Of a stretch of DNA of 64,000 bases, positions 41,074 to 52,333 are shown in pieces; position 1 is the stretch's first letter, and every line of letters begins with the position of its first letter. Position numbers and translations under genes: made by a program. The notes under the pieces are model-generated. The model worked only from the letters and a program-made list of their open reading frames with translations, was not told the DNA's origin and searched no databases. Origin of the DNA: Thermococcus sp. JdFR-02 (GTDB lineage Archaea; Methanobacteriota_B; Thermococci; Thermococcales; Thermococcaceae); contig MTLP01000028.1 of NCBI GenBank assembly GCA_002009975.1, forward strand, positions 32,001 to 96,000. The letters run 5' to 3'.

Positions 41074-42795
41074 ATGAAAAAGGAGAGCGAGAGATATATC
41101 CGGAGATGGATCATAGTTTTGAGCTTTTCCATCATTGCTGGCATAGTTGGAGGTTTAGGAGCTTTAGCATTTAGAGGAACAATTATTTTAGCTCAAAGGT
41201 TTTTCTTTGGTTTCCTTCTTCCAAAGGTGTCTTTAAATGTTAACGGCTTAAACTTGGGTTATATTCTCTTGCCAGCTTTGGGTGGTCTTTTAGTTGCTCC
41301 TTTAATAAAAAAGGCACCGGAGATTAAGGGAAATGGTGTCCCAGAGATCATTGAAGCTGTTATATTTAAAGGTGGTATGATTAAAAGGGAATTGACTTTC
41401 TTGAAGATAGTTGCAACATCAATAACAATTGGCTCTGGGGGAAGTGCTGGTAGGGAAGGTCCCATAGGATTTATAGGTGCTTCTTTAGCCTCAACCTTAG
41501 CTCAAGCCTTTAAGCTTTCAAAGGAAATGAGGAAGCTTTTAACCACCTGTGGACTAGCAGCGGGAATAGCGGGTATTTTTAACACACCCTTGGCTGGGGC
41601 TATGTTTGCTTTAGAAGTAATTTACAATGGGGCATTTTCAATAAACATAGTCCCAATACTTCTCTCAGCAATTGTTGGAAATTCCGTAACCCTTTTTGTT
41701 TTGGGAGATGCCTTTGAGCTTTCTATCCCCCCAAACTTATCAATAAATCACAGAGAACTCGTGCTCTTTTTCTTAATGGGATTGTTTTTTGGAGTGTTAG
41801 CGGCTTTCCTTGTAAAATCTTTTTACATGTTAATAGATAAGTTTGAAAACTTAAACCTTCCATTTCTATTAAAACCTGCTTTGGGTGGTTTATTTGTTGG
41901 ATTTATTGGGATGTTTTTCCCCCATTATGGAATTTTTGGGATTGGGTATGAGGGTATGAGGTTAGCCATTAATGGACTCTTGCCTTTAAAGCTCCTAATC
42001 CTCCTCGGCATAGCAAAGATTTTAGCAACATCCTTAACCCTATCATCTGGTCATAGTGGTGGAATATTTGCTCCAAGTTTATATATTGGAACAATGATAG
42101 GAGCAGCTTTTGGAGTTTTCTTTAAAATTCTCTTCCCAGAATTTGTGAGCAGTGAAGCTGTTTATGCATTATCTGGAATGGCTGCTTTGTTTAGTGGTGT
42201 TACTCAAGCGCCTATAACTCAAATATTAATGATAGCTGAACTAACTAGGAGCTACGCTATTTTACCAGCTGTCATGAGTTCATCGGTAATAAGCTTCTTA
42301 GTAGCAAGGTATTTTCTTAAAGGTTCTTCAGTTTATACTTTAAAGCTTGAAAGGAAGGGACTTCGTGTAAAGGCTGGAAGACCAGCAATTCTTTCAACGA
42401 TAACTGTTGAGGAAATCATGACAAAAAATCCAGTGTTTCTGAATATCTCAGACACAATCTCTGATGTTGAACACCTAATAGCCAAAACTGGGCATGATTA
42501 TTATCCTGTAGTAGATGAAGAGCTTAGAGTCGTGGGGATAATTGGAATAAGAGATTTAATAAAGTGCTCTCCAGACGCTAAGCTTTTACCAATACGTGAG
42601 TTTTTAGATAACAATACTTTTGTCACAATTTATCCAAGCGAAACAGCACAAGACGCTTTGGATAAAATGATAAAATGCAATTTGAATCTTATTCCAGTGA
42701 TTAATAAAGAAGACAAGAGGCTTATTGGAGTTGTAACGAAGAGTGATATTTACAAAGCATATTATCTAAGTGTCGAAAGGGAGTATATTGAATAA
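41074..42795 (+). CDS. CLC chloride channel/antiporter with CBS pair
   Basis: GNGVPE, GREGP and GGIFAP motifs, plus C-terminal CBS domains. Confidence 0.93.
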   Translation: MKKESERYIRRWIIVLSFSIIAGIVGGLGALAFRGTIILAQRFFFGFLLPKVSLNVNGLNLGYILLPALGGLLVAPLIKKAPEIKGNGVPEIIEAVIFKGGMIKRELTFLKIVATSITIGSGGSAGREGPIGFIGASLASTLAQAFKLSKEMRKLLTTCGLAAGIAGIFNTPLAGAMFALEVIYNGAFSINIVPILLSAIVGNSVTLFVLGDAFELSIPPNLSINHRELVLFFLMGLFFGVLAAFLVKSFYMLIDKFENLNLPFLLKPALGGLFVGFIGMFFPHYGIFGIGYEGMRLAINGLLPLKLLILLGIAKILATSLTLSSGHSGGIFAPSLYIGTMIGAAFGVFFKILFPEFVSSEAVYALSGMAALFSGVTQAPITQILMIAELTRSYAILPAVMSSSVISFLVARYFLKGSSVYTLKLERKGLRVKAGRPAILSTITVEEIMTKNPVFLNISDTISDVEHLIAKTGHDYYPVVDEELRVVGIIGIRDLIKCSPDAKLLPIREFLDNNTFVTIYPSETAQDALDKMIKCNLNLIPVINKEDKRLIGVVTKSDIYKAYYLSVEREYIE

Positions 42796-42803
42796 AAGAA
42801 AAT

Positions 42804-43667
42804 TTATCCTAGCTTTGCTTTCATTCCAATGAGATAGAAAAGCAATTTTGCTCCAGTTAAAGCGGTTATATCACCAAGTTCTGTTCCAGCAACTTCCATT
42901 ATGTCAATTCCAGCAATTTTCTTATTTTTGATAAGCCATTCTAAAGCTTCAATTACTTCCCAAAAGCTTAAACCTCCAGCTTCTGGTGTTCCAGTACTTG
43001 GAACCATTGAAAGGTCGAAGACATCTATATCAATTGACAAGTAGATAGGCTCTGGGAGGTCTTTAACTATTTCAATAAACTTGCCAACATTGTAATCTCT
43101 TGCATGAATCCAGTGAATCTTTTTCTCTTTGGCGTATTCAACTTCTTCTTTTATACCGCTCCTAATTCCAAATTCTGCTATTTCAATTCCAAGCTCTGAA
43201 ACTCTCCTCGCTATACAAGCATGATCCCATTTTTCCTCTTGATATGTATCCCTTAAATCTAAATGGGCATCAAAAACGACGTAGCTCTTTGGATTTAGAG
43301 CTTTAACTGGTGGATAAGTCATTAAGTGCTCCCCACCCAAGATTATAGGTAAAGCGTTTGGATTGGCTTCTTTTAACTCTTCAACCGTTGCAATTCCCCT
43401 CTTTATAGTTTCTAGCGGATTTCCTGCAACGATATCTAAGTCTCCAATGTCTGCTATTTTTAAATCAGCTAAATCAACATCATAGTCTAAAATATAGCTC
43501 TCCAAATTTATCGTTGCTTGCCTTATTAGCGTTGGTCCAAATCTTGCTCCAGGTTTATATGAAGTAGTTGAATCAAAAGGAATACCTAAAATGACGAAGT
43601 CAGCTTTTTCAACATCTACTAATGGCAATGCAGTTTTTATGGTTTCGTATGTGTAGAAGAATTCCAT
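42804..43667 (-). CDS. speB: Agmatinase / N1-aminopropylagmatine ureohydrolase
   Basis: GGEH, DAHLD, SIDIDVFD and TGTPEAGG motifs. Confidence 0.93.
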   Translation of the reverse strand: MEFFYTYETIKTALPLVDVEKADFVILGIPFDSTTSYKPGARFGPTLIRQATINLESYILDYDVDLADLKIADIGDLDIVAGNPLETIKRGIATVEELKEANPNALPIILGGEHLMTYPPVKALNPKSYVVFDAHLDLRDTYQEEKWDHACIARRVSELGIEIAEFGIRSGIKEEVEYAKEKKIHWIHARDYNVGKFIEIVKDLPEPIYLSIDIDVFDLSMVPSTGTPEAGGLSFWEVIEALEWLIKNKKIAGIDIMEVAGTELGDITALTGAKLLFYLIGMKAKLG

Positions 43668-43783
43668 TCTCACCACCTAAAGAGGATTTGGTATTTAAGT
43701 TATAAGATTTACGAGATTGTTGTTTTTCAAATGTCCATATATGAACAACTGTGAACTTTCCCATAACATTTATATATTTCTTC

Positions 43784-43805
43784 TACACTTTGTAGGTATA
43801 GTGTA
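43784..43805. promoter_or_regulatory. Putative TrmB-family operator of the sugar operon
   Basis: TACACT-N10-AGTGTA dyad just downstream of TATA TTTATATA (43769-43776). Confidence 0.5.
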
Positions 43806-43829
43806 CTAAAAATACAATAGGTGTTGGAC

Positions 43830-45188
43830 ATGAAGAAAAAAGCCGCGTTTGGAATTTTGTTGTTAGGTGTTTTTGTTTTTGGAGTAATGGCAAGTGGTTG
43901 TTTGCAAAAGCAGGGAACTACAACTACCCCTACTGAGAGCAAAGCAGAGGAAACAAAAGAAGAAATTAAGATTGTTGAACTTGAATTTTGGCATGGAATT
44001 GAAGCTCCAGAAAACCAAAAGGTGTTAGAAGAGCTTGTTAAGAGGTTTGAGGAAACTCATCCAAATATTAAGATAAAGATTGTTAACTATGGCGCTCAAG
44101 ATAAGGCAGTGCCAAAGATAATGTCTGCTGTTCAAGCTGGGACTCCACCTGACTTAGTTTGGCTTAACCCAGCACAAACAGGCTTCTTCGCTGAAGCTGG
44201 AGTTTTGGCACCAGTTGAAGATTTTATAAAAAATGATCCATCATTTAACAAGGATGACGTATACGAAGGTCTTTGGGAACTTGGAACCTATAAAGGTAAA
44301 ATTTACACTGCACCTTTTGACACTAACAACTTAGCTATTTATTATAACAAAGAGCTATTCAAGGAAGCGGGGCTCGATCCAGAGGCTTATATGGGCAAAG
44401 CATTAACATGGGAAGAATTTAGGGAATTAGCAAAGAAGCTTACAAAGGATAAAGATGGGGATGGAAAGATTGATCAATATGGCTTTATGGTCCCATTTGG
44501 AAGGTTAGAATGGACAGTTTGGACATGGGAGGTCTTCTTATGGTCAGCTGGTGGTGAGTTATTGACAGAAGATCAAAGCAAACCAATATTTGCAAGTGAA
44601 GCTGGGATAAAAGCTCTTCAATATTGGGTTGATTTAGTTTATAAGGACAAAGTTGCGAAGTTAAGTGAAGCAAACGCAGGCTATAAGTTAGATGACTTCT
44701 TTGCTGGAAGAGTAGCTATGATGATTAATGGTCCATGGAATTTCCCAGTTCTTAAGAGTGAAGGATGGCTGGAGAAGACAGGGGTAATGTTAATGCCTTA
44801 TGACAAGAGAATTGCCACAAACATTGGTGGAGAAAACTTGTTCATTTTCAAGACAACTCCTGAAAGAGAAAAAGCTGCTTGGGAGTTTGCTAAGTTTGTT
44901 ATGAGTCCAGAGTTCCAAGTTCCATGGGCATTAAAAACTGGTTACTTGCCAGTCTGTAAGAGTGCTTTAGAGAATCCAGAATACAAAAAGTTCCTAGAGG
45001 AGAACGTGTTCATTAAAATATATGTCGAGAATCTTCAATATGGTAAAGCAAGACCTCCAGTTCCCCAATACCCCGAGATGTCAGCGGCAATTGGACAAGC
45101 TATTGAAGCCGCACTGTTGCAAAAGAAAGACCCAGAAACTGCTTTAAAAGAAGCTCAAACAAAAATTGAAGAATTGTTTAAGTCTTGA
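43830..45188 (+). CDS. Sugar ABC transporter substrate-binding lipoprotein (CUT1)
   Basis: Lipobox MASGC, Thr-rich linker, IYYNKELF, AMMINGPW and GYLP motifs. Confidence 0.93.
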   Translation: MKKKAAFGILLLGVFVFGVMASGCLQKQGTTTTPTESKAEETKEEIKIVELEFWHGIEAPENQKVLEELVKRFEETHPNIKIKIVNYGAQDKAVPKIMSAVQAGTPPDLVWLNPAQTGFFAEAGVLAPVEDFIKNDPSFNKDDVYEGLWELGTYKGKIYTAPFDTNNLAIYYNKELFKEAGLDPEAYMGKALTWEEFRELAKKLTKDKDGDGKIDQYGFMVPFGRLEWTVWTWEVFLWSAGGELLTEDQSKPIFASEAGIKALQYWVDLVYKDKVAKLSEANAGYKLDDFFAGRVAMMINGPWNFPVLKSEGWLEKTGVMLMPYDKRIATNIGGENLFIFKTTPEREKAAWEFAKFVMSPEFQVPWALKTGYLPVCKSALENPEYKKFLEENVFIKIYVENLQYGKARPPVPQYPEMSAAIGQAIEAALLQKKDPETALKEAQTKIEELFKS

Positions 45189-45219
45189 CATTTTTATTTT
45201 TATTTTTGGAGGTGAGGAA

Positions 45220-46104
45220 ATGAGAGCATTTCCTAATAGAGAGCTGAGACATAACCTTGAAGCTTACACTTTTCTTGCACCTGCTTTAACTATCATGATC
45301 ATCTTCTTAGCTTACCCAGTTCTGAACCTATTTTACATAAGCTTTTTTGATTGGAGAGGATTAGGAGCTAGGCATTTCGTCTTCCTTGATAATTATAAGA
45401 TGCTTTTACGAAATGAGGAGTTTAGATTAGTTTTTAAAAACACCCTTATCTATATTCTTGGAGTAGTTCCAACCACGATGGTTTTCTCACTTTTTGCAGC
45501 TGTTTTGTTAAATTCAAAAATTAAGCTTAGGGGATTTTATAGGACTTCAATTTTTTCTCCTACTGCAATATCATTTGTAGCAACTGGTATCATCTGGGTT
45601 TGGATGTTTAACTTAGATTATGGGCTTGTTAATAGAGTTTTGAATGCTTTAGGTTTTTCAGTAATAGACTGGCTTAGAAGCACACCTTGGGCAATGGTTG
45701 CTGTTATAATAGCCACTGTTTGGGCAAGAGTTGGCTACTTTATGGTAATATACTTAGCAGGACTTCAAACCATTCCAGAGGATTATTACGAAGCATCGGA
45801 TATTGATGGAGCTAATTCACTTCAAAAATTCCTTCATGTAACACTACCATTGCTAAAGCCAACCCACGTTTTAGTTCTTGTCATGCTCACAATTTTTTCA
45901 TTTAGAGACTTTGATCAGATTTACACAATGACAGGGGGCGGACCTTTGATGTCAACAACAACCTTAGCTTATTATATTTATGTGCTGAGCTTTGAGCGGT
46001 TTAGATTCTCCCAAGGAGCTACAGTAGCCGTTATTTTACTCTTCCTTGTAATATTAGTACAGTATTTACAGAGGAAAGTGTTTGGAGAGGAGGCAATTTA
46101 CTGA
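45220..46104 (+). CDS. Sugar ABC transporter permease (MalF-like)
   Basis: EAA loop EASDIDGA. Confidence 0.92.
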   Translation: MRAFPNRELRHNLEAYTFLAPALTIMIIFLAYPVLNLFYISFFDWRGLGARHFVFLDNYKMLLRNEEFRLVFKNTLIYILGVVPTTMVFSLFAAVLLNSKIKLRGFYRTSIFSPTAISFVATGIIWVWMFNLDYGLVNRVLNALGFSVIDWLRSTPWAMVAVIIATVWARVGYFMVIYLAGLQTIPEDYYEASDIDGANSLQKFLHVTLPLLKPTHVLVLVMLTIFSFRDFDQIYTMTGGGPLMSTTTLAYYIYVLSFERFRFSQGATVAVILLFLVILVQYLQRKVFGEEAIY

Positions 46105-46113
46105 GGTGATAAA

Positions 46114-46944
46114 ATGAAGGTTAAGACAAGGAAATTTACCTTAAAAAGCTTAGCAATTCATGTATCAACTTGGGTTTTTATAATCATCATTATAGTACCT
46201 ATCCTTTGGACTTTCTTTACATCACTTAAAACTCCCGTAGAAATAGCCAAGGGAACGATTTTACCTGAAGCTTGGAAATGGGAAAACTATAGATTAGCTT
46301 GGGAACAGGCAGAGTTTCCAAGAAAATTTTTAAACAGTTTTATAGTGGCTATAACAGTTACCTTGGGTCAAATAGTTACTTCTGCAATGGCTGGTTATGC
46401 ATTGGCAAGAATGGAATTTAAAGGGAGAGAGTTAATATTCAGCATAGCTATTGCGTCAATGCTGATCTCTGAGCAAATAATAATTGTTCCCCTTTATGTT
46501 TTATTAGCAAAGCTTGGATGGATAGACAGCTACAAAGGATTAATGATTCCTTGGTTTTTCAATGGCTTTGGTGTTTTCTTATTTAGGCAGTTCTTTCTCA
46601 CGATTCCAAAAGATATAGAAGAAGCAGCAATAGTTGATGGGGCATCACGCTTTAGAATACTTTGGCAAGTTATGTTACCTCTAGCAACTCCAGCAGTTTT
46701 GACGCTTTTCATGTTCACATTTATAGCAGAATGGAATTCCCTTTTCAAGTGGCTTATCTTGATAAAATCTCCTGAAATGAGGAACGTGCAGCTTGGCTTA
46801 ACTCTCTTTCAAGAGCAATTCATTGCTCAATACAATCTCTTAACAGCTGCAACAATAATTGTTTCTCTACCATCAGTCATACTCTTTCTAATCGGTCAAA
46901 GATACTACATCAAGGGTATTGCAATGAGCGGAGTAAAGGGGTGA
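46114..46944 (+). CDS. Sugar ABC transporter permease (MalG-like)
   Basis: EEAAIVDGAS and WNS motifs. Confidence 0.92.
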   Translation: MKVKTRKFTLKSLAIHVSTWVFIIIIIVPILWTFFTSLKTPVEIAKGTILPEAWKWENYRLAWEQAEFPRKFLNSFIVAITVTLGQIVTSAMAGYALARMEFKGRELIFSIAIASMLISEQIIIVPLYVLLAKLGWIDSYKGLMIPWFFNGFGVFLFRQFFLTIPKDIEEAAIVDGASRFRILWQVMLPLATPAVLTLFMFTFIAEWNSLFKWLILIKSPEMRNVQLGLTLFQEQFIAQYNLLTAATIIVSLPSVILFLIGQRYYIKGIAMSGVKG

Positions 46945-46948
46945 TAAC

Positions 46949-48151
46949 ATGAGAATAGCCATGATAACTCCACATGGAGACCCATTAGGGAAGCTGGGGG
47001 AACCAGATACTGGAGGACAATGTGTTTATGTTAAGGAGTTGAGCAAGCATTTAGGGAAGCTTGGAGCTGAAGTAGATATTTTCACAAGACAAAGAGGTGG
47101 AAGAAGGGAAATAGAACAAATAAGCGAAAATGTTAGAGTTATTAGGATTGAGTGCGGACCGGAGGGATTTATTCCAAAGGAAAAGTTGATGCCATATTTA
47201 CCAGAGTTTACTGAAAAAGTCGCTGACTATGTCGAAAAAAGACAGTATGACATAATTCACACCCACTACTGGGACGGTGGCTTTGTTGGGCTGAAGCTTA
47301 AAGAGCGCTTTAGGGTTAAACTGGTACACACTTCCCATTCTCTCGGAGTTTTAAAAGCTAAAGCTCTGGGAAACTTTGAGCCTTATAAAGAGAGGATTGC
47401 TCTTGAAAAAGAAATTTATGGGAAGAGTGATGCGATAATTGCAACAACGAAGATTGAAAAGAATGACATAGCAACGCTTTATGGAATAGATGAAAGTAAA
47501 ATTTATGTAATCCCCATAGGAGTTGATACAACTTTTTATAAGCCAATGGGAACCAAAGGCAAACTCAAAAAAGATCTTAACCTGCCACAAATTCCATTGG
47601 TCTTTGCATTAGCAAGACTTGATCCAAGAAAGGGTCTTGACCTTCTTATAAAAAGCGTTCCTTATATTAAGAAACACTACAATGGAGACTTTTTAGTATT
47701 GATCAGCACTGGCACGGGAGCTAAGGAAGAGGAGAAGGAGATGAACAAGCTTTTAACACTAATAAGAGAGCTAGATGTGGAGAAAGAGATTAAGATAATA
47801 CCAGCAATTAAGCCAATAGACCTTGTGCCGAAATACTACTCAGCGGCAGATGTATTTGTTCTTCCATCCCCCTATGAACCCTTTGGAATAGTTATGCTTG
47901 AAGCAATGGCGTGCAAAGCTCCAATGGTTGCAACGAAGTTTGGAGGACCAGCAGAAGTGATCCAAGATGGCTATGATGGCTTTTTAGTTGATCCAAAGGA
48001 TTCTGGGGAAATGGGCAAAAAGATTGCAGAGCTTTTAAGAGATGATAAGAAAAGAGAGCTTTTTGCAGAAAGAGCATATAAAAAGGTCATGGAAAAATAC
48101 TCATGGAGCAGTGTTGCAAAAGAAGTGTTAAGTCTGTTCAGGGGTCTTTAG
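46949..48151 (+). CDS. GT4 glycosyltransferase, sucrose-phosphate/mannosylfructose-phosphate synthase-like
   Basis: HG..LGEPDTGGQCVYV, HYWDG, HSLG, RLDPRKG and EPFGIVMLEA motifs. Confidence 0.8.
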   Translation: MRIAMITPHGDPLGKLGEPDTGGQCVYVKELSKHLGKLGAEVDIFTRQRGGRREIEQISENVRVIRIECGPEGFIPKEKLMPYLPEFTEKVADYVEKRQYDIIHTHYWDGGFVGLKLKERFRVKLVHTSHSLGVLKAKALGNFEPYKERIALEKEIYGKSDAIIATTKIEKNDIATLYGIDESKIYVIPIGVDTTFYKPMGTKGKLKKDLNLPQIPLVFALARLDPRKGLDLLIKSVPYIKKHYNGDFLVLISTGTGAKEEEKEMNKLLTLIRELDVEKEIKIIPAIKPIDLVPKYYSAADVFVLPSPYEPFGIVMLEAMACKAPMVATKFGGPAEVIQDGYDGFLVDPKDSGEMGKKIAELLRDDKKRELFAERAYKKVMEKYSWSSVAKEVLSLFRGL

Positions 48152-48162
48152 GGGGGATTTTA

Positions 48163-49023
48163 TTGATAGATGTACTTTCAATAGGTGAAGTGCTTGTAGA
48201 CTTAAAAATCATTGACGGAAAGATAAGCGTGCATAGTGGAGGGTCTTGTCTCAACGTTGCTTTCTATTCAGCACAGCTTGGAGCAAGATCATCTTTTATT
48301 GGGACGGTGGGCGATGACTTTCTTGGGAGGTACATAACAAAAGAGCTTGAAAGCTTGGATTTTAAAATCCCCCTTTCAGTTATTAACCAAAACACCACAT
48401 TAGTTCTCATAAAGTCTGAAAAAGAAAAGCTTGAACCCTTAATTTACAGGGGAGCCGATAGGTTCATAACAGAGGAGCAAATAGTTGAAAGCTGGAAAGA
48501 TGCAAGAATCGTTCATACTTCAGCTTTTGCCCTTTCACTCAATCCAAGCAAGGAAGCAATTTTAAATGCATTAAAGCAGGCAAAGGAGAATGGTTCTCTA
48601 ATTTCAGTTGATCCTAATTATAGAAAGGATATCTGGAAAAGATGGGGAGCTGACGAGAGGGCACTTTTAGAGGCTATTTCAATAGCCGATATTGTTAAGC
48701 CTTCAATAGAAGACGCAAAAGAGCTCTTAGGAATAAGGGATCCAATGAAAGCTTTAAAGATTTTTAAGGGGCTTGGTGCTAAAAACGTTATATTAAGCAT
48801 GGGTGCGAAAGGGGTTATTGCATTAACTGAAGACGACAGGCTTATTAATATATCGAGCAAAAGGGTTAATGTCGTGGATCCAACTGGTGCTGGAGATTCA
48901 CTCCTGGGTACAATATTAGCAAAGTTTTCAAGGGGTTATGATATAGAAGAAGCAATAGAAGTTGGCACAGAAGTTGCGGCTAAAGTTGTCAGCACAGAAG
49001 GTACGCTAGTTAAGGTGGTATAG
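48163..49023 (+). CDS. PfkB family sugar kinase (fructokinase-like)
   Basis: GGSCLNVA, VGDDFLG, DPNYR and DPTGAGD motifs. TTG start at 48163 preferred. Confidence 0.85.
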   Translation: MIDVLSIGEVLVDLKIIDGKISVHSGGSCLNVAFYSAQLGARSSFIGTVGDDFLGRYITKELESLDFKIPLSVINQNTTLVLIKSEKEKLEPLIYRGADRFITEEQIVESWKDARIVHTSAFALSLNPSKEAILNALKQAKENGSLISVDPNYRKDIWKRWGADERALLEAISIADIVKPSIEDAKELLGIRDPMKALKIFKGLGAKNVILSMGAKGVIALTEDDRLINISSKRVNVVDPTGAGDSLLGTILAKFSRGYDIEEAIEVGTEVAAKVVSTEGTLVKVV

Positions 49024-50025
49024 ATGGAAAGGTTGCTTGAGAAATTCAAAGAATTCGGCTTTACCAAATATGAAGCCTTGGCTTATCTTACTCTTTTAGC
49101 CTATGGATCTCTAACTGCAAGAGGAATTTCAAAGAGAGCTCAAATACCATACAATAGAACTTACGATGTTCTAGCTTCCTTAATTGAAAAAGGCTTTGTT
49201 CAAGAGCTTGAGGGCAAATCAAGGACATTTATAGCTGTTGAGCCAGATGTTGCTTTTCATAGGTATTCCAAGGCATTAGAGCAGCTTAAAGAGGAAGTTA
49301 AAAGAGCAGCTGAAAACTTAAGAGTTGAGGAAAGGGAATATGCTATTTGGAGGTTTTCTTCTCCAGAAGAAGTTCTTATAAGCCTGAAGAACATGATGAA
49401 GAATACTACCTTTGAGTTTACACTTTTAGCTCCAAACAATTTCTTGTTTCAAATAACGGACGAATTAAAGGAGCTTTTGAAAAGAGGGGTAACGCTTTCT
49501 GTTTACACTGATGAAGATGTGGAGCTTGGATTAGGTGGAAACATTTTTGTTAGGATTACAGATAAAACGGGGCATATAATAGCTTTAAGTGATATAAAAG
49601 AGGTTTTGGTTTCTCCAAGCTTGGCTTTTGAGGTTGGAAGTGAACTACCTTCTGGTTTTAAGTCTAACTTTCCGGAGATACTTTTCTCCTATTACATTTA
49701 TATTAGGGATGTCTTTAACTCTTCAAAGCTCTTAGATTTCAATGTAGAAAGCTTCAATGAAAAAGAACTCCGCTTTGTAGTGTGCTATCATATAACCCAG
49801 ATTCTTGAGAAGTTCTTCAACAAAGGATTTGATGTTAAAGCTGAAATCCATACAACAACGGGGAATATTTTGGAGGGGAATGTGGTGGGGTTCATTGACA
49901 ACAAAGTGGTAAACAACTTCTCTTTGGATATAAATGGAACAAAAGTCACTGTTGGGGGTCCATTTTCGATTATTGAAGAGTATGAAGAAGAAGGGACTAT
50001 CCTTTACCCACAAAAGAGAACATAA
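49024..50025 (+). CDS. TrmB family sugar-sensing transcriptional regulator
   Basis: FGFTKYEA and IPYNRTYDVL wHTH, plus C-terminal effector motif VGG....E.YE. Confidence 0.9.
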   Translation: MERLLEKFKEFGFTKYEALAYLTLLAYGSLTARGISKRAQIPYNRTYDVLASLIEKGFVQELEGKSRTFIAVEPDVAFHRYSKALEQLKEEVKRAAENLRVEEREYAIWRFSSPEEVLISLKNMMKNTTFEFTLLAPNNFLFQITDELKELLKRGVTLSVYTDEDVELGLGGNIFVRITDKTGHIIALSDIKEVLVSPSLAFEVGSELPSGFKSNFPEILFSYYIYIRDVFNSSKLLDFNVESFNEKELRFVVCYHITQILEKFFNKGFDVKAEIHTTTGNILEGNVVGFIDNKVVNNFSLDINGTKVTVGGPFSIIEEYEEEGTILYPQKRT

Positions 50026-50034
50026 GGAAGAAAG

Positions 50035-50445
50035 CTACTCTCCCTTTGTCTTCATGATTTTAATTCTTCCAAGGGTTTCCCAGTATTCTACGTTTATCCC
50101 CTCTGTTATCTTATCCTTGATTTCATCGGCAACTCCGCTTTCTATTGGAACATCAAATATCTCATAGGTTTCCATATCCATTAGTTGCACTGTATCTGGT
50201 GTAATTGCAATAATTTGTCCAGTTCTTTTGTCGATGATTGGAACATCAACTTCAGCGCTTGTTGGCTTAACTATGCTCCTTGTCTTTTTGTCAAATATTC
50301 CAACGGCATCAATTCTTGCCTTTGCTGAACCGTGCTTACCTGGGGAAGAAATGGAGATGTTGACTATTCTGCATGGCTCACCATCAATAATAATGTACCT
50401 ACCAACTTTAAGCTTTCCAACTACAGCTCTTGTTTTGTCTCCCAT
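50035..50445 (-). CDS. eif5A: Translation factor aIF5A
   Basis: SPGKHGSAK hypusination motif. Confidence 0.97.
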
Positions 50446-50524
50446 ATTCAAACCTCCATAAGCGCTCTAAGAGTGCTTCGATATAGTTCTTTAAAAAATT
50501 TTTGAAGGAGTGTTTGGGTATTTT

Positions 50525-51184
<660 letters not shown>

Positions 51185-51196
51185 TCATGCTCACCT

Positions 51197-52273
51197 CTAT
51201 AGCTCTCTTTCAAACCTTTCAATCACAATTTCTCTCTCTTTAAGCCCTGAAATGATTTCATTGTAAGTGTCGTCTCTCATACCAAATATTTCTGGAGGAA
51301 TAACACCAAAGGCACATCGCTGTTCCGCTATTAAACGAGCTATAATTGCCGCTGTAAACCCCGTAACTCTTGCCATAGAGGTAAATCCTCCCTTAGCTTC
51401 ATCATAGAGGAAATACTTGATTTCTTTCTCTTTTTCTCCAGTTATGCCTTTTCCATAAACCTCCATTATTGAGAAGTCTTCACTTTCATACTGCATTAGA
51501 GGGGAAATAACCTTTAAGGTGAAATCTACATTCTCTGGCTTAAAGAATCCGAGCTCCCTTAAAACCTTCATCTTTTCTAAATGTCCCTTCCATCTTAAAG
51601 TCTTTTCTTCAAGGGTTTTTGCTCTAATAGTTTCAAGTAAAGTTCTCAATCCATCGCTAACGAACTCCTCGAACTTAAAATCTTTTATTTCAACACTCTC
51701 TATTTTTTCCAGAGGATCAACTTTTACAACCTGTCCCCTTTTAATTATCCTTGCCTCTCTCGTATACTCTTCAATTAAATCGTAAGGAGACCATGTGATC
51801 TTGTAATAAAGTGGTGGTTTTGGATCCTTAGGCAAGCCACCTACTCTAATAATTCCTTCCTCTAACTCATCAAGCTCTTGGTATATTCTTCCCAAAAAAA
51901 TGTTGCTCAATCCTGGGGCAAAGCCAGCATCAACCACTATCGTTATTTGAGCTTTTTCTGCCTCTTCTCTAAGCTCCATTGGATCTTCGGGCATAAAGGA
52001 GATATCCACCAAATCCCTCTTAGCTTCTATAGCAGCTTTTAAAGTTTTGAATCCAAATCTTCCTGGCAAAGCTCCAATAATTAGATCAAACTTTTTCATT
52101 GAATTTACTAATTCATCAAATTTGCCTGCATTAACTTTTATTGGATTTGCAAACTCTTTAACTGCTTCGAGCCTTTCTTTGCTTATATCTCCAACCCATA
52201 CTTCAAACTCCTTACTTAAGTCATAAGCTATTGCCTTCCCAACGTTTCCAGCGCCTAAGACGAGAACTTTCAT
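51197..52273 (-). CDS. Saccharopine dehydrogenase family / lysine 6-dehydrogenase
   Basis: GAGNVG, DAGFAPG, SDGLRTL and SMARVTG motifs. Confidence 0.85.
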   Translation of the reverse strand: MKVLVLGAGNVGKAIAYDLSKEFEVWVGDISKERLEAVKEFANPIKVNAGKFDELVNSMKKFDLIIGALPGRFGFKTLKAAIEAKRDLVDISFMPEDPMELREEAEKAQITIVVDAGFAPGLSNIFLGRIYQELDELEEGIIRVGGLPKDPKPPLYYKITWSPYDLIEEYTREARIIKRGQVVKVDPLEKIESVEIKDFKFEEFVSDGLRTLLETIRAKTLEEKTLRWKGHLEKMKVLRELGFFKPENVDFTLKVISPLMQYESEDFSIMEVYGKGITGEKEKEIKYFLYDEAKGGFTSMARVTGFTAAIIARLIAEQRCAFGVIPPEIFGMRDDTYNEIISGLKEREIVIERFEREL

Positions 52274-52333
52274 TTTTTCACCCTCCTGCATTTTGACCAA
52301 AGATATATATAAGGTTCATCTAAAATTAAAATC

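Follow-up and report, generated by a model that had tools for sequence, protein, structure and literature searches.

Which sugar does a hyperthermophilic archaeon handle with an operon that joins a glycosyltransferase resembling sucrose-phosphate synthase (SPS) to an importer, a kinase and a repressor, and in which direction does that glycosyltransferase run? The question is raised by a locus in a 64 kb stretch of Thermococcus sp. JdFR-02 DNA (contig MTLP01000028.1, positions 32,001 to 96,000), referred to below as the window. Six co-directional, nearly gapless genes form one operon there behind a TATA box and a TrmB-type operator (Table 1), and encode a sugar-binding protein (SBP), two ATP-binding cassette (ABC) permeases, a GT4 glycosyltransferase, a PfkB-family kinase and a TrmB-family repressor. 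A first-pass annotation had described this tight operon with its own TATA box, which was confirmed by the open reading frames (ORFs) and by Pfam and NCBIfam matches, and had taken it for a sucrose or mannosylfructose system, an interpretation that was partly supported. An SPS-like GT4 with an apparently intact sugar-phosphate site is wired here to an importer, a kinase and a repressor, and no fewer than 36 distinct loci, belonging to several anaerobic phyla, share this wiring. The operon is read here, tentatively and with more doubt than confidence, as a TrmB-controlled module for the uptake and breakdown of a non-reducing hexosyl-fructoside, by way of a kinase and then a GT4 that would run an SPS-type reaction in reverse; its substrate would most likely be sucrose, mannosylfructose being possible.

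The translated GT4 contained LGEPDTGGQCVYV at residues 16-28, HYWD at 106-109, HSLG at 130-133 and RLDPRK at 223-228, which are the four motifs quoted in the first-pass annotation. In SPS of T. elongatus, according to the available part of the structural report, Arg105 and Arg178 bind the phosphate of sucrose-6-phosphate, Ala48 and Gln51 hydrogen-bond fructose, and His158 and Glu331 hold glucose (PMC7264703). In the pairwise alignment of the Protein Data Bank (PDB) match, where the chain index equals the published number + 3, Arg105, Arg178, Ala48, Gln51, His158 and Glu331 corresponded to K77, R149, T21, Q24, H130 and E310 of the GT4. All of these except T21 were invariant in the 29 sequences of the family alignment, and K77, R149 and Q24, which were also common to cut-off-passing SPS, indicate at sequence level that the GT4 retains the phosphate and fructose site of SPS. 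Three sucrose synthase (SuSy) sequences carried Q or H in place of R149 and differed also at H106, S131 and G133. The quartet of phosphate-binding residues is common to SPS and MshA. Taken with the six positions described next, the residues support a sugar-phosphate acceptor held in an SPS-like pocket, and are no proof of fructose-6-phosphate (F6P). The predicted acceptor is F6P or another sugar phosphate.

Six positions at which the window clade and the SPS rows agreed separated them from the MshA rows, namely 24 (Q; M in MshA), 66 (R; H or N), 109-110 (D-G/A; L-S), 131 (S; T), 133 (G; A) and 227 (R or K; L). The GT4 sided with SPS at all six, as did every clade member among the 41 rows inspected of the 73-row alignment, the SPS side consisting of one cut-off-passing SPS (655 bits) and three SPS-like proteins. 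The MshA signature (GGM, HYWLSG, HT-A) was absent, all six positions differing from those of five MshA sequences.

Family models gave no name to the enzyme. It scored 257.4 bits on the NCBIfam model of MshA (TIGR03449, cut-off 462.5) and 197.7 bits on that of SPS (TIGR02472, cut-off 576); on the latter a Nostoc SPS-like protein made up of the glycosyltransferase part only reached 310 bits and also failed, whereas an Acidithiobacillus SPS passed with 655 bits. TreT (NF041139) was absent from the best 25 of 50 NCBIfam matches and from the 60 PDB matches at E <= 1e-10. Neither SUS_N nor EPBD, the N-terminal domains of SuSy (TIGR02470), was found in the GT4, and PF00862 reached 19.8 bits (E 0.0004), short of its cut-off of 23. 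Among PDB sequences the GT4 matched T. elongatus SPS best (2.3e-61), followed by Corynebacterium glutamicum MshA (1.7e-58) and H. orenii SPS (5e-48). Its AlphaFold model, based on 29 relatives (mean pLDDT 93.5), matched MshA and T. elongatus SPS at TM 0.80 and H. orenii SPS at TM 0.75, with 30-32 % identity, and also lay close to the α-maltose-1-phosphate synthase GlgM (TM 0.81).

A quick IQ-TREE phylogeny was reconstructed from relatives on genome and metagenome contigs, with five cut-off-passing MshA, one cut-off-passing SPS, the Nostoc SPS-like protein, three SuSy and the TreT of this genome as references. Of 92 distinct GT4 sequences 71 were used, the 21 omitted in order to lighten the tree all belonging to the large bacterial group; matching segments shorter than 300 residues were dropped and two long rows were trimmed, one of which filled 21 % of the columns, giving 73 rows with the window sequence and TreT. 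The reference SPS is encoded on an Acidithiobacillus plasmid in a cluster that also carries PfkB, GH100 invertase and SPP-like HAD genes, and no cut-off-passing SPS was found in five genomes with relatives. MshA formed a group with support of 100, and SPS and SuSy a clade with 94 (inner node 99); there was also a small clade whose genes adjoin GH100-like and S6PP genes, and TreT stood on a very long branch. The window GT4 fell outside the SPS/SuSy clade, in a separate clade of 41 rows (SH-aLRT 88) made up of Thermococcales (100), one member of the Promethearchaeota, a group of Ktedonobacterales and proteobacteria (99) and a large bacterial group (100).

Judged by models and tree, the GT4 is none of MshA, TreT, SuSy and curated SPS and belongs to a clade of its own within the SPS/SuSy/MshA superfamily. 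The earlier placement in the SPS/SuSy clade and away from TreT and MshA thus stood as regards the distance from TreT and the six differences from MshA, and fell as regards membership of the SPS or SuSy clade; the phylogeny behind this verdict covered SPS, SuSy, MshA and TreT. Public records name the clade members 'glycosyltransferase' or 'D-inositol-3-phosphate glycosyltransferase', and names in the ESM Atlas are generic or of MshA type; the MshA-family labels appear to be a naming artefact. Among longer proteins there were only 10 distant matches (23-31 % identity) and no fusion of a GT4 to a phosphatase or kinase, which is weak evidence. The literature searched, judged by titles and abstracts, contained no report of an SPS-like enzyme in Thermococcales, in agreement with the statement of the first-pass annotation that no archaeal enzyme of such a type had been characterised, and one survey, in its available part and by its own criteria, detected no archaeal SPS (PMC4663468).

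Outside the Thermococcales the comparison covered 50 distinct loci whose GT4 shared 40-70 % identity with that of the window, identical copies having been removed from the 82 loci examined; named records came from Thermotogota, Bipolaricaulota/Acetothermia, Neomarinimicrobiota, Ktedonobacterales and Promethearchaeota. A kinase gene lay directly downstream of the GT4 in 36 of the 39 loci with at least 900 nt of downstream sequence, and encoded a P-loop protein of about 240 residues from the PRK/uridine-kinase family in 32 loci and a PfkB in four. The remaining three were two proteobacterial loci of S6PP type and one sequence from outside the window clade. Because two unrelated kinase folds occupy the same slot, phosphorylation seems to belong to the function of the module, and this is the strongest sign that the comparison gave; both folds would cover kinases of the primary hydroxyl in furanosides that bear a bulky anomeric substituent, for example nucleosides. 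Genes for ABC binding proteins or permeases occurred within 6 kb of the GT4 in 28 of 33 loci with enough flanking sequence, and the regulator upstream was of DeoR type in 38/42 and TrmB-like in 1/42. The bacterial module (L021-L029, L119-L155) is strongly conserved and consists of DeoR, GT4, the P-loop kinase, an SBP and a pair of permeases, to which an ATPase and a glucokinase are sometimes added; we know of no description of it, although the literature was not searched specifically for the module.

The proteobacterial branch of the clade has a different setting. Its GT4 directly follows an S6PP-family phosphatase in nine of 10 tree rows (PF05116 5.5e-51; SPP model TIGR01485 115 bits, below cut-off), and upstream lies a nucleotidyltransferase fused to a PGM_PMM domain, whose best model was mannose-1-phosphate guanylyltransferase (254 bits, below cut-off). 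A full SuSy and sometimes a PfkB stand beside the S6PP-GT4 pair. The order in these clusters (L033-L037, L154-L161, L190-L191; records of Methylocaldum and Methyloversatilis among them) is ManC-like/PGM_PMM fusion, S6PP phosphatase and GT4, with SuSy adjoining. They may serve the synthesis of sucrose or mannosylfructose by a synthase outside the curated SPS family, and this context ties the window clade to F6P chemistry, that is, to the synthesis of sucrose-phosphate or mannosylfructose-phosphate; the earlier guess of an SPS- or MfpsA-like enzyme fits a clade with such a branch. In the importer-linked branches the phosphatase partner is gone.

Within the Thermococcales, orthologues of the GT4 (78-87 % identity) were present in nine of 99 genomes, that of the window included, and the next best GT4 was 36 % identical. 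By genus code they occurred in 1/1 genomes of g1, 2/3 of g2, 3/62 of g4 and 3/14 of g5; going by the source names in public records, candidate cultured carriers include Palaeococcus pacificus, Thermococcus argininiproducens and T. waiotapuensis. The GT4-PfkB pair was kept in all nine and the full six-gene order in five, and one genome had GT4, PfkB and TrmB without the transporter. The eIF5A block that borders the operon in the window also adjoins the pair in two other genomes (L014, L015), and four genomes with the full operon had no eIF5A in the 17 kb covered; because this adjacency varies among genomes, the pair or the operon appears to have moved. In three of the genomes the pair stands behind another ABC system and once more neighbours eIF5A; this system comprises an SBP, two permeases, an ATPase, its own TrmB-like regulator and a β-phosphoglucomutase (β-PGM)-like HAD protein, with GH130 in two. 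The genome of the window holds a counterpart on contig 7 (TrmB-like regulator, β-PGM-like HAD, GH65, two GH130 genes, and an ABC importer with its ATPase), without the GT4-PfkB pair. The possibility that the pair is a functional part of the GH130/GH65 locus lying upstream of it in three genomes was rejected, since in this genome that locus lies on another contig and lacks the pair.

Table 1. Promoter elements and genes of the operon, numbered from the first nucleotide of the window
Feature	Position	Strand	Basis or remark
TATA box TTTATATA	43769-43776	+	Direct reading
TrmB-type operator TGTACTAAAAATACA	43802-43816	+	TACT-N3-A[G/A]TA core; between TATA box and start codon
SBP, ORF opening with GTG 43821	43821-45188	+	Pfam SBP_bac_8 1.6e-51; extracellular sugar-binding protein, CUT1-type
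SBP, likelier start ATG 43830	43830-45188	+	Conserved GGTG ahead of ATG
ABC permease 1 (MalF/UgpA-like)	45166-46104	+	PF00528 3.2e-21
ABC permease 2 (MalG/GlcU-like)	46114-46944	+	PF00528 1.6e-19; NCBIfam GlcU 138 bits, below its cut-off
GT4 retaining glycosyltransferase, 400 aa	46949-48151	+	Glyco_transf_4 and Glycos_transf_1; unnamed clade of the SPS/SuSy/MshA superfamily
PfkB-family sugar kinase, ORF as listed	48103-49023	+	PF00294 6.3e-49; overlaps GT4
PfkB, corrected start TTG 48163, 286 aa	48163-49023	+	GGGGGG ribosome site 48151-48156
TrmB-family sugar-sensing repressor	49024-50025	+	PF01978 and PF11495 (DNA-binding and effector domains, full length)

With the corrected PfkB start the gene junctions are an overlap and then gaps of 9, 4, 11 and 0 nt. 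That start is almost certainly the real one, since a ribosome site precedes it and the resulting protein has the length of its orthologues. Orthologues of permease 1 align from about residue 15-19, and the gene may in fact begin a few codons into the ORF. The SBP has a signal sequence, a lipobox-like ASGC and a Thr-rich linker. No gene for an ABC ATPase lies within the operon, and four MalK-like genes occur elsewhere in the genome. The G+C content of the operon shows no anomaly. On its two sides stand a leftward agmatinase-like gene (42804-43676, - strand) and a leftward eIF5A gene (50035-50451, - strand). Beyond eIF5A follow an ORF of 219 residues and a saccharopine-dehydrogenase-like gene (51197-52300, - strand), and just upstream of the agmatinase-like gene an ORF of 573 residues (41074-42795) resembles, from its translation only, a ClC-type channel with C-terminal CBS-like repeats.

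Control by TrmB is indicated by both the promoter and the repressor. In an alignment of the sequences upstream of the operon in the four genomes that share it, a TTATATA element occupied the position of the TATA box in three of the four (L017-L019), and in the same three promoters the perfect palindrome TGTACTAGAAGTACA stood at the aligned place of the operator, of which the window copy differs by one mismatch. The pattern TGTACT-N3-AGTACA, with one mismatch allowed, matched twice in the 64 kb window against 0.05 matches expected. The dyad pointed out previously, TACACT (43784-43789) with AGTGTA (43800-43805), does exist, but the orthologous promoters do not preserve it. A second operator-like site, TGTAATATTAGTACA (46047-46061, one mismatch), lies at the 3' end of the permease 1 gene about 55 nt before the start of permease 2, and could be a chance match or an internal TrmB site.

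The repressor matched Pyrococcus furiosus TrmB (3QPH) at 8.2e-55 and retains the DNA-contacting residues Y50 and D51, invariant among its orthologues. The recognition motif of TrmB, as given in the available part of its description, is TACTN3AGTA (PMC4158304), so that a Y50/D51 protein and such an operator at the promoter, the latter with one mismatch, occur together here. Four of the six glucosyl-contacting residues are unchanged (N305, G320, I325 and E326) and V324 is replaced by I, while S229, which by mapping onto P. furiosus TrmB touches the second sugar of maltose, is replaced by I and M321 by P in all five orthologues. The repressor shares 37 % identity with the canonical TrmB of this genome and scored 246.5 bits on the NCBIfam TrmB model, and because this is below the cut-off of 600 it is taken as a paralogue and not as TrmB proper.

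The rest of the genome bears on the function in two ways. On contig 7 a TreT gene (825 bits, over its cut-off) lies beside a TrmB gene (580 bits), facing an ABC importer, a fructokinase-like PfkB and a protein of 396 residues without an NCBIfam match at E <= 1e-20. The parallel in layout with the TreT/TrmB trehalose-maltose system, drawn in the first-pass annotation, was supported, and with an authentic TreT/TrmB pair on another contig the operon is a second, parallel system and not the trehalose/maltose system itself. Phosphatases of PF05116 (S6PP) or PF02358 gave no match in the 99.99%-complete genome, and a search for GH32 returned only the two GH130 genes. The core operon set contains no hydrolase or phosphorylase; its lack of a hydrolase and an SPP phosphatase had been noted before, and for PF05116 this now extends to the whole genome.

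The best solved relatives of the operon PfkB were H. orenii fructokinase (3HJ6, 9.2e-40) and fructokinase 5EY7 (3e-29). It scored 134.6 bits on the fructokinase model NF006957, below the cut-off of 450, and 139.8 bits on the IolC-N model, and the fructokinase-like PfkB of the same genome, 26 % identical to it, scored 197 bits on the former. In a kinase tree it grouped with other GT4-linked PfkBs, in lineages apart from that protein. By these relationships it is a specialised kinase of a separate, fructokinase-like lineage; the earlier description as fructokinase-like holds for its closest structures and not for kinship with the canonical enzyme of the genome. An archaeal myo-inositol kinase, which we take to have been solved, was not among the 24 PfkB structures at E <= 1e-10.

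The genes and their order, the operator, the residue conservation, the position of the GT4 in a separate clade and its linkage to kinase and importer genes across phyla were observed; a substrate, a donor nucleotide, a reaction direction and an order of steps are what we infer, as follows. The SBP and the two permeases would import the sugar, powered by a MalK-type ATPase encoded elsewhere in the genome. PfkB would phosphorylate the fructosyl 6-OH of the disaccharide, and the GT4, in reverse, would turn the disaccharide-6F-phosphate and a nucleoside diphosphate (NDP) into NDP-hexose and F6P. The energy of the glycosidic bond would be kept in the sugar nucleotide, and the two halves would pass into central metabolism for the price of a single ATP. 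TrmB would occupy its TACT-N3-AGTA-like operator, across the transcription start, and would leave it on binding a glucoside-type inducer. Since the core module has no hydrolase or phosphorylase, the GT4 is its sole candidate for making or breaking a glycosidic bond, and since a sugar-sensing repressor, an importer and a kinase come without a phosphatase, the module is read as catabolic. The SPS reaction lies near equilibrium and in phototrophs is, as far as is known, pulled forward only by the phosphatase.

Several observations weigh against this kinase-first, reverse-SPS reading. The GT4 falls under the SPS cut-off and scores higher on the MshA model, and the fold search was nearly a tie (MshA 3e-32, T. 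elongatus SPS 1e-30, H. orenii SPS 2e-30). The six positions that separate SPS from MshA were picked after the alignment had been viewed and involve a single cut-off-passing SPS, and the deep branching among the window clade, SPS/SuSy and MshA has no firm order in the tree. In three of the nine Thermococcales genomes the GT4-PfkB pair stands behind the different ABC system, with no TrmB of the operon type. The best solved relative of the SBP, 5CI5 (Tlet_1705, 1.4e-50), was crystallised with a monosaccharide, α-D-tagatose; an Agrobacterium SBP whose structure contains sucrose (4QSD) is related more distantly, and for the bacterial-type SBP and that of the TreT locus of this genome the PDB relatives were too remote to point to a sugar. 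A relative about 96-97 % identical across the operon and its flanks (window 43000-51000) was found in four runs, from one sample of one study, whose libraries are labelled as marine-sediment metatranscriptomes; their contigs reach 140 kb, so that these libraries probably include DNA and give no sign of expression or operon transcription. We know of no precedent for a physiological reverse SPS reaction or for a PfkB-type sucrose kinase. Of the 17 bacterial loci with 6 kb or more of upstream sequence, six have the module facing a GH65 gene and a β-PGM/trehalose-phosphatase fusion; the best solved relative of this GH65 was deposited as 'trehalose-6-phosphate hydrolase' (2e-155), kojibiose phosphorylase following at 9e-102, and the fusion scored 175 bits on TIGR00685, over its cut-off. 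This arrangement agrees with a disaccharide 6-phosphate as the central intermediate, and in these bacteria that intermediate may be trehalose-6-phosphate.

The last of these points leads to the alternative that the acceptor is another phospho-sugar, such as glucose-6-phosphate (giving trehalose-6-phosphate), an inositol phosphate or glucose-1-phosphate, and that the module handles trehalose or another glucoside. Besides the flanking GH65 and fusion genes, the phosphate-binding residues shared by MshA and SPS, the MshA model as the highest NCBIfam score and the close fold match to GlgM all fit it. Q24, R66, D109-G110, S131, G133 and R227 nevertheless match SPS against MshA, proteobacterial members of the clade stand together with S6PP and SuSy, the best solved relatives of the kinase are fructokinases and the genome already has a full TreT/TrmB trehalose system. 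We regard this alternative as unlikely. The same low probability is given to a biosynthetic role, in which the GT4, as a sucrose-phosphate or mannosylfructose-phosphate synthase, would use F6P to make the precursor of an osmolyte, a HAD phosphatase encoded elsewhere would complete the product, the transporter would recapture or import the same solute and PfkB would recycle fructose. The SPS-type acceptor residues agree with this, as does the proteobacterial branch, which is clearly biosynthetic by context, and the Acidithiobacillus SPS cluster likewise has a PfkB. Against it, the genome has no PF05116 or PF02358 gene, F6P, being a central metabolite, requires no kinase of its own, and replacement of the phosphatase partner by an importer and a sugar-responsive repressor is the usual design of a catabolic operon. 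Sucrose and mannosylfructose are, to our knowledge, not reported as solutes of Thermococcales, although the literature was not searched specifically for them.

Cleavage might also precede phosphorylation, as the first-pass annotation preferred: the GT4 would act as a short sucrose synthase (sucrose + NDP giving NDP-glucose + fructose) and PfkB as a plain fructokinase, with the same net stoichiometry as the kinase-first reading. The solved fructokinases nearest to PfkB point this way, and the layout mirrors that of the TreT operon, where a fructokinase-like PfkB lies near TreT in the same genome. TreT, itself a GT4, acts on an unphosphorylated disaccharide; SuSy has the HY-D-G region in common with the GT4, and also has a GGQ motif, in an N-terminal part that lay outside the alignment. 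The proposal is weakened by R149, which with K77 is kept in the GT4 and all 29 relatives and which the three SuSy sequences have lost to Q or H along with their differences at H106, S131 and G133, and by the absence of the SuSy N-terminal domains. A plain fructokinase, moreover, would not need to be swapped for an unrelated P-loop kinase in 32 loci, nor does the operon PfkB belong to the lineage of the fructokinase-like gene of the genome. We consider it the least probable of the explanations weighed here, and distinctly unlikely.

If the kinase-first reading with a reversed GT4 were true, SPS chemistry would serve as a catabolic tool in a new ATP-sparing use of disaccharides, the enzyme would be the first of SPS type in Archaea, and a heat-stable interconverter of sugar nucleotides and phospho-disaccharides would be at hand. 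Sucrose-type metabolism is regarded as a trait of phototrophs and a few bacteria. It is conceivable, with slightly greater doubt than attaches to the operon itself, that importer, PfkB or P-loop kinase and reverse SPS-like GT4 make up a widespread, unrecognised energy-saving disaccharide route in anaerobes, and the doubt is the same for the taxa to which it would extend, namely Thermococcales, Asgard archaea, Thermotogota, Bipolaricaulota, Marinimicrobia-like bacteria and Chloroflexota. Were the GT4 biosynthetic, Thermococcales would have a new osmolyte pathway, and the public labels of the clade would be corrected.

Among known systems, the trehalose/maltose system of Thermococcus litoralis and P. 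furiosus (malEFG, treT, trmB and malK, with frk nearby) shares with the operon a TrmB with Y50/D51, a TACT-N3-AGTA-like operator, a CUT1 SBP with two permeases, and one GT4 as the sole sugar-bond enzyme with a PfkB adjoining. It differs in that the window GT4 is not TreT, the operon has no malK, and its TrmB is diverged from the canonical one, with S229I and M321P. SPS (EC 2.4.1.14; T. elongatus Tll1590, 6KIH; H. orenii, 2R60) has in common with the GT4 the GT-B fold of family GT4, GGQ, HY-D-G, HSLG and R-x-D-x-RK, counterparts of the two phosphate-binding arginines and of catalytic His and Glu, and the top PDB match. The window enzyme is nevertheless only about 31 % identical, below the TIGR02472 cut-off and in a separate clade, has no SPP partner in the genome and sits in an importer operon under a sugar repressor; the H. 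orenii SPS gene presumably adjoins a fructokinase gene. MshA (3C48/3C4Q) has the same fold, the top NCBIfam score and the shared phosphate-binding quartet, whereas the GT4 stays under the 462.5-bit cut-off and has GGQ instead of GGM and HYWDGG instead of HYWLSG, together with S131, G133, R66 and R227.

Agrobacterium tumefaciens MfpsA is an SPS-related GT4 with F6P as acceptor and is paired with an SPP-like phosphatase, MfppA. The proteobacterial branch of the window clade has the same pairing together with the ManC-like/PMM fusion, a likeness of gene context. For the module as proposed, the nearest precedent is offered by Ruminococcus gnavus, for which the available part of one report describes an ABC importer, a sucrose kinase (AgaSK) and the phospho-sucrose-splitting RgSPP, a sucrose-6F-phosphate phosphorylase (PMC6521584). 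Its kinase is a different one, no AgaSK structure being among the PDB matches of the bacterial P-loop kinase, and cleavage there falls to a GH13_18 phosphorylase that uses phosphate, in place of a GT4 that uses NDP; common to both would be an importer, a sucrose kinase and a cleavage of phospho-sucrose that conserves the energy of the bond.

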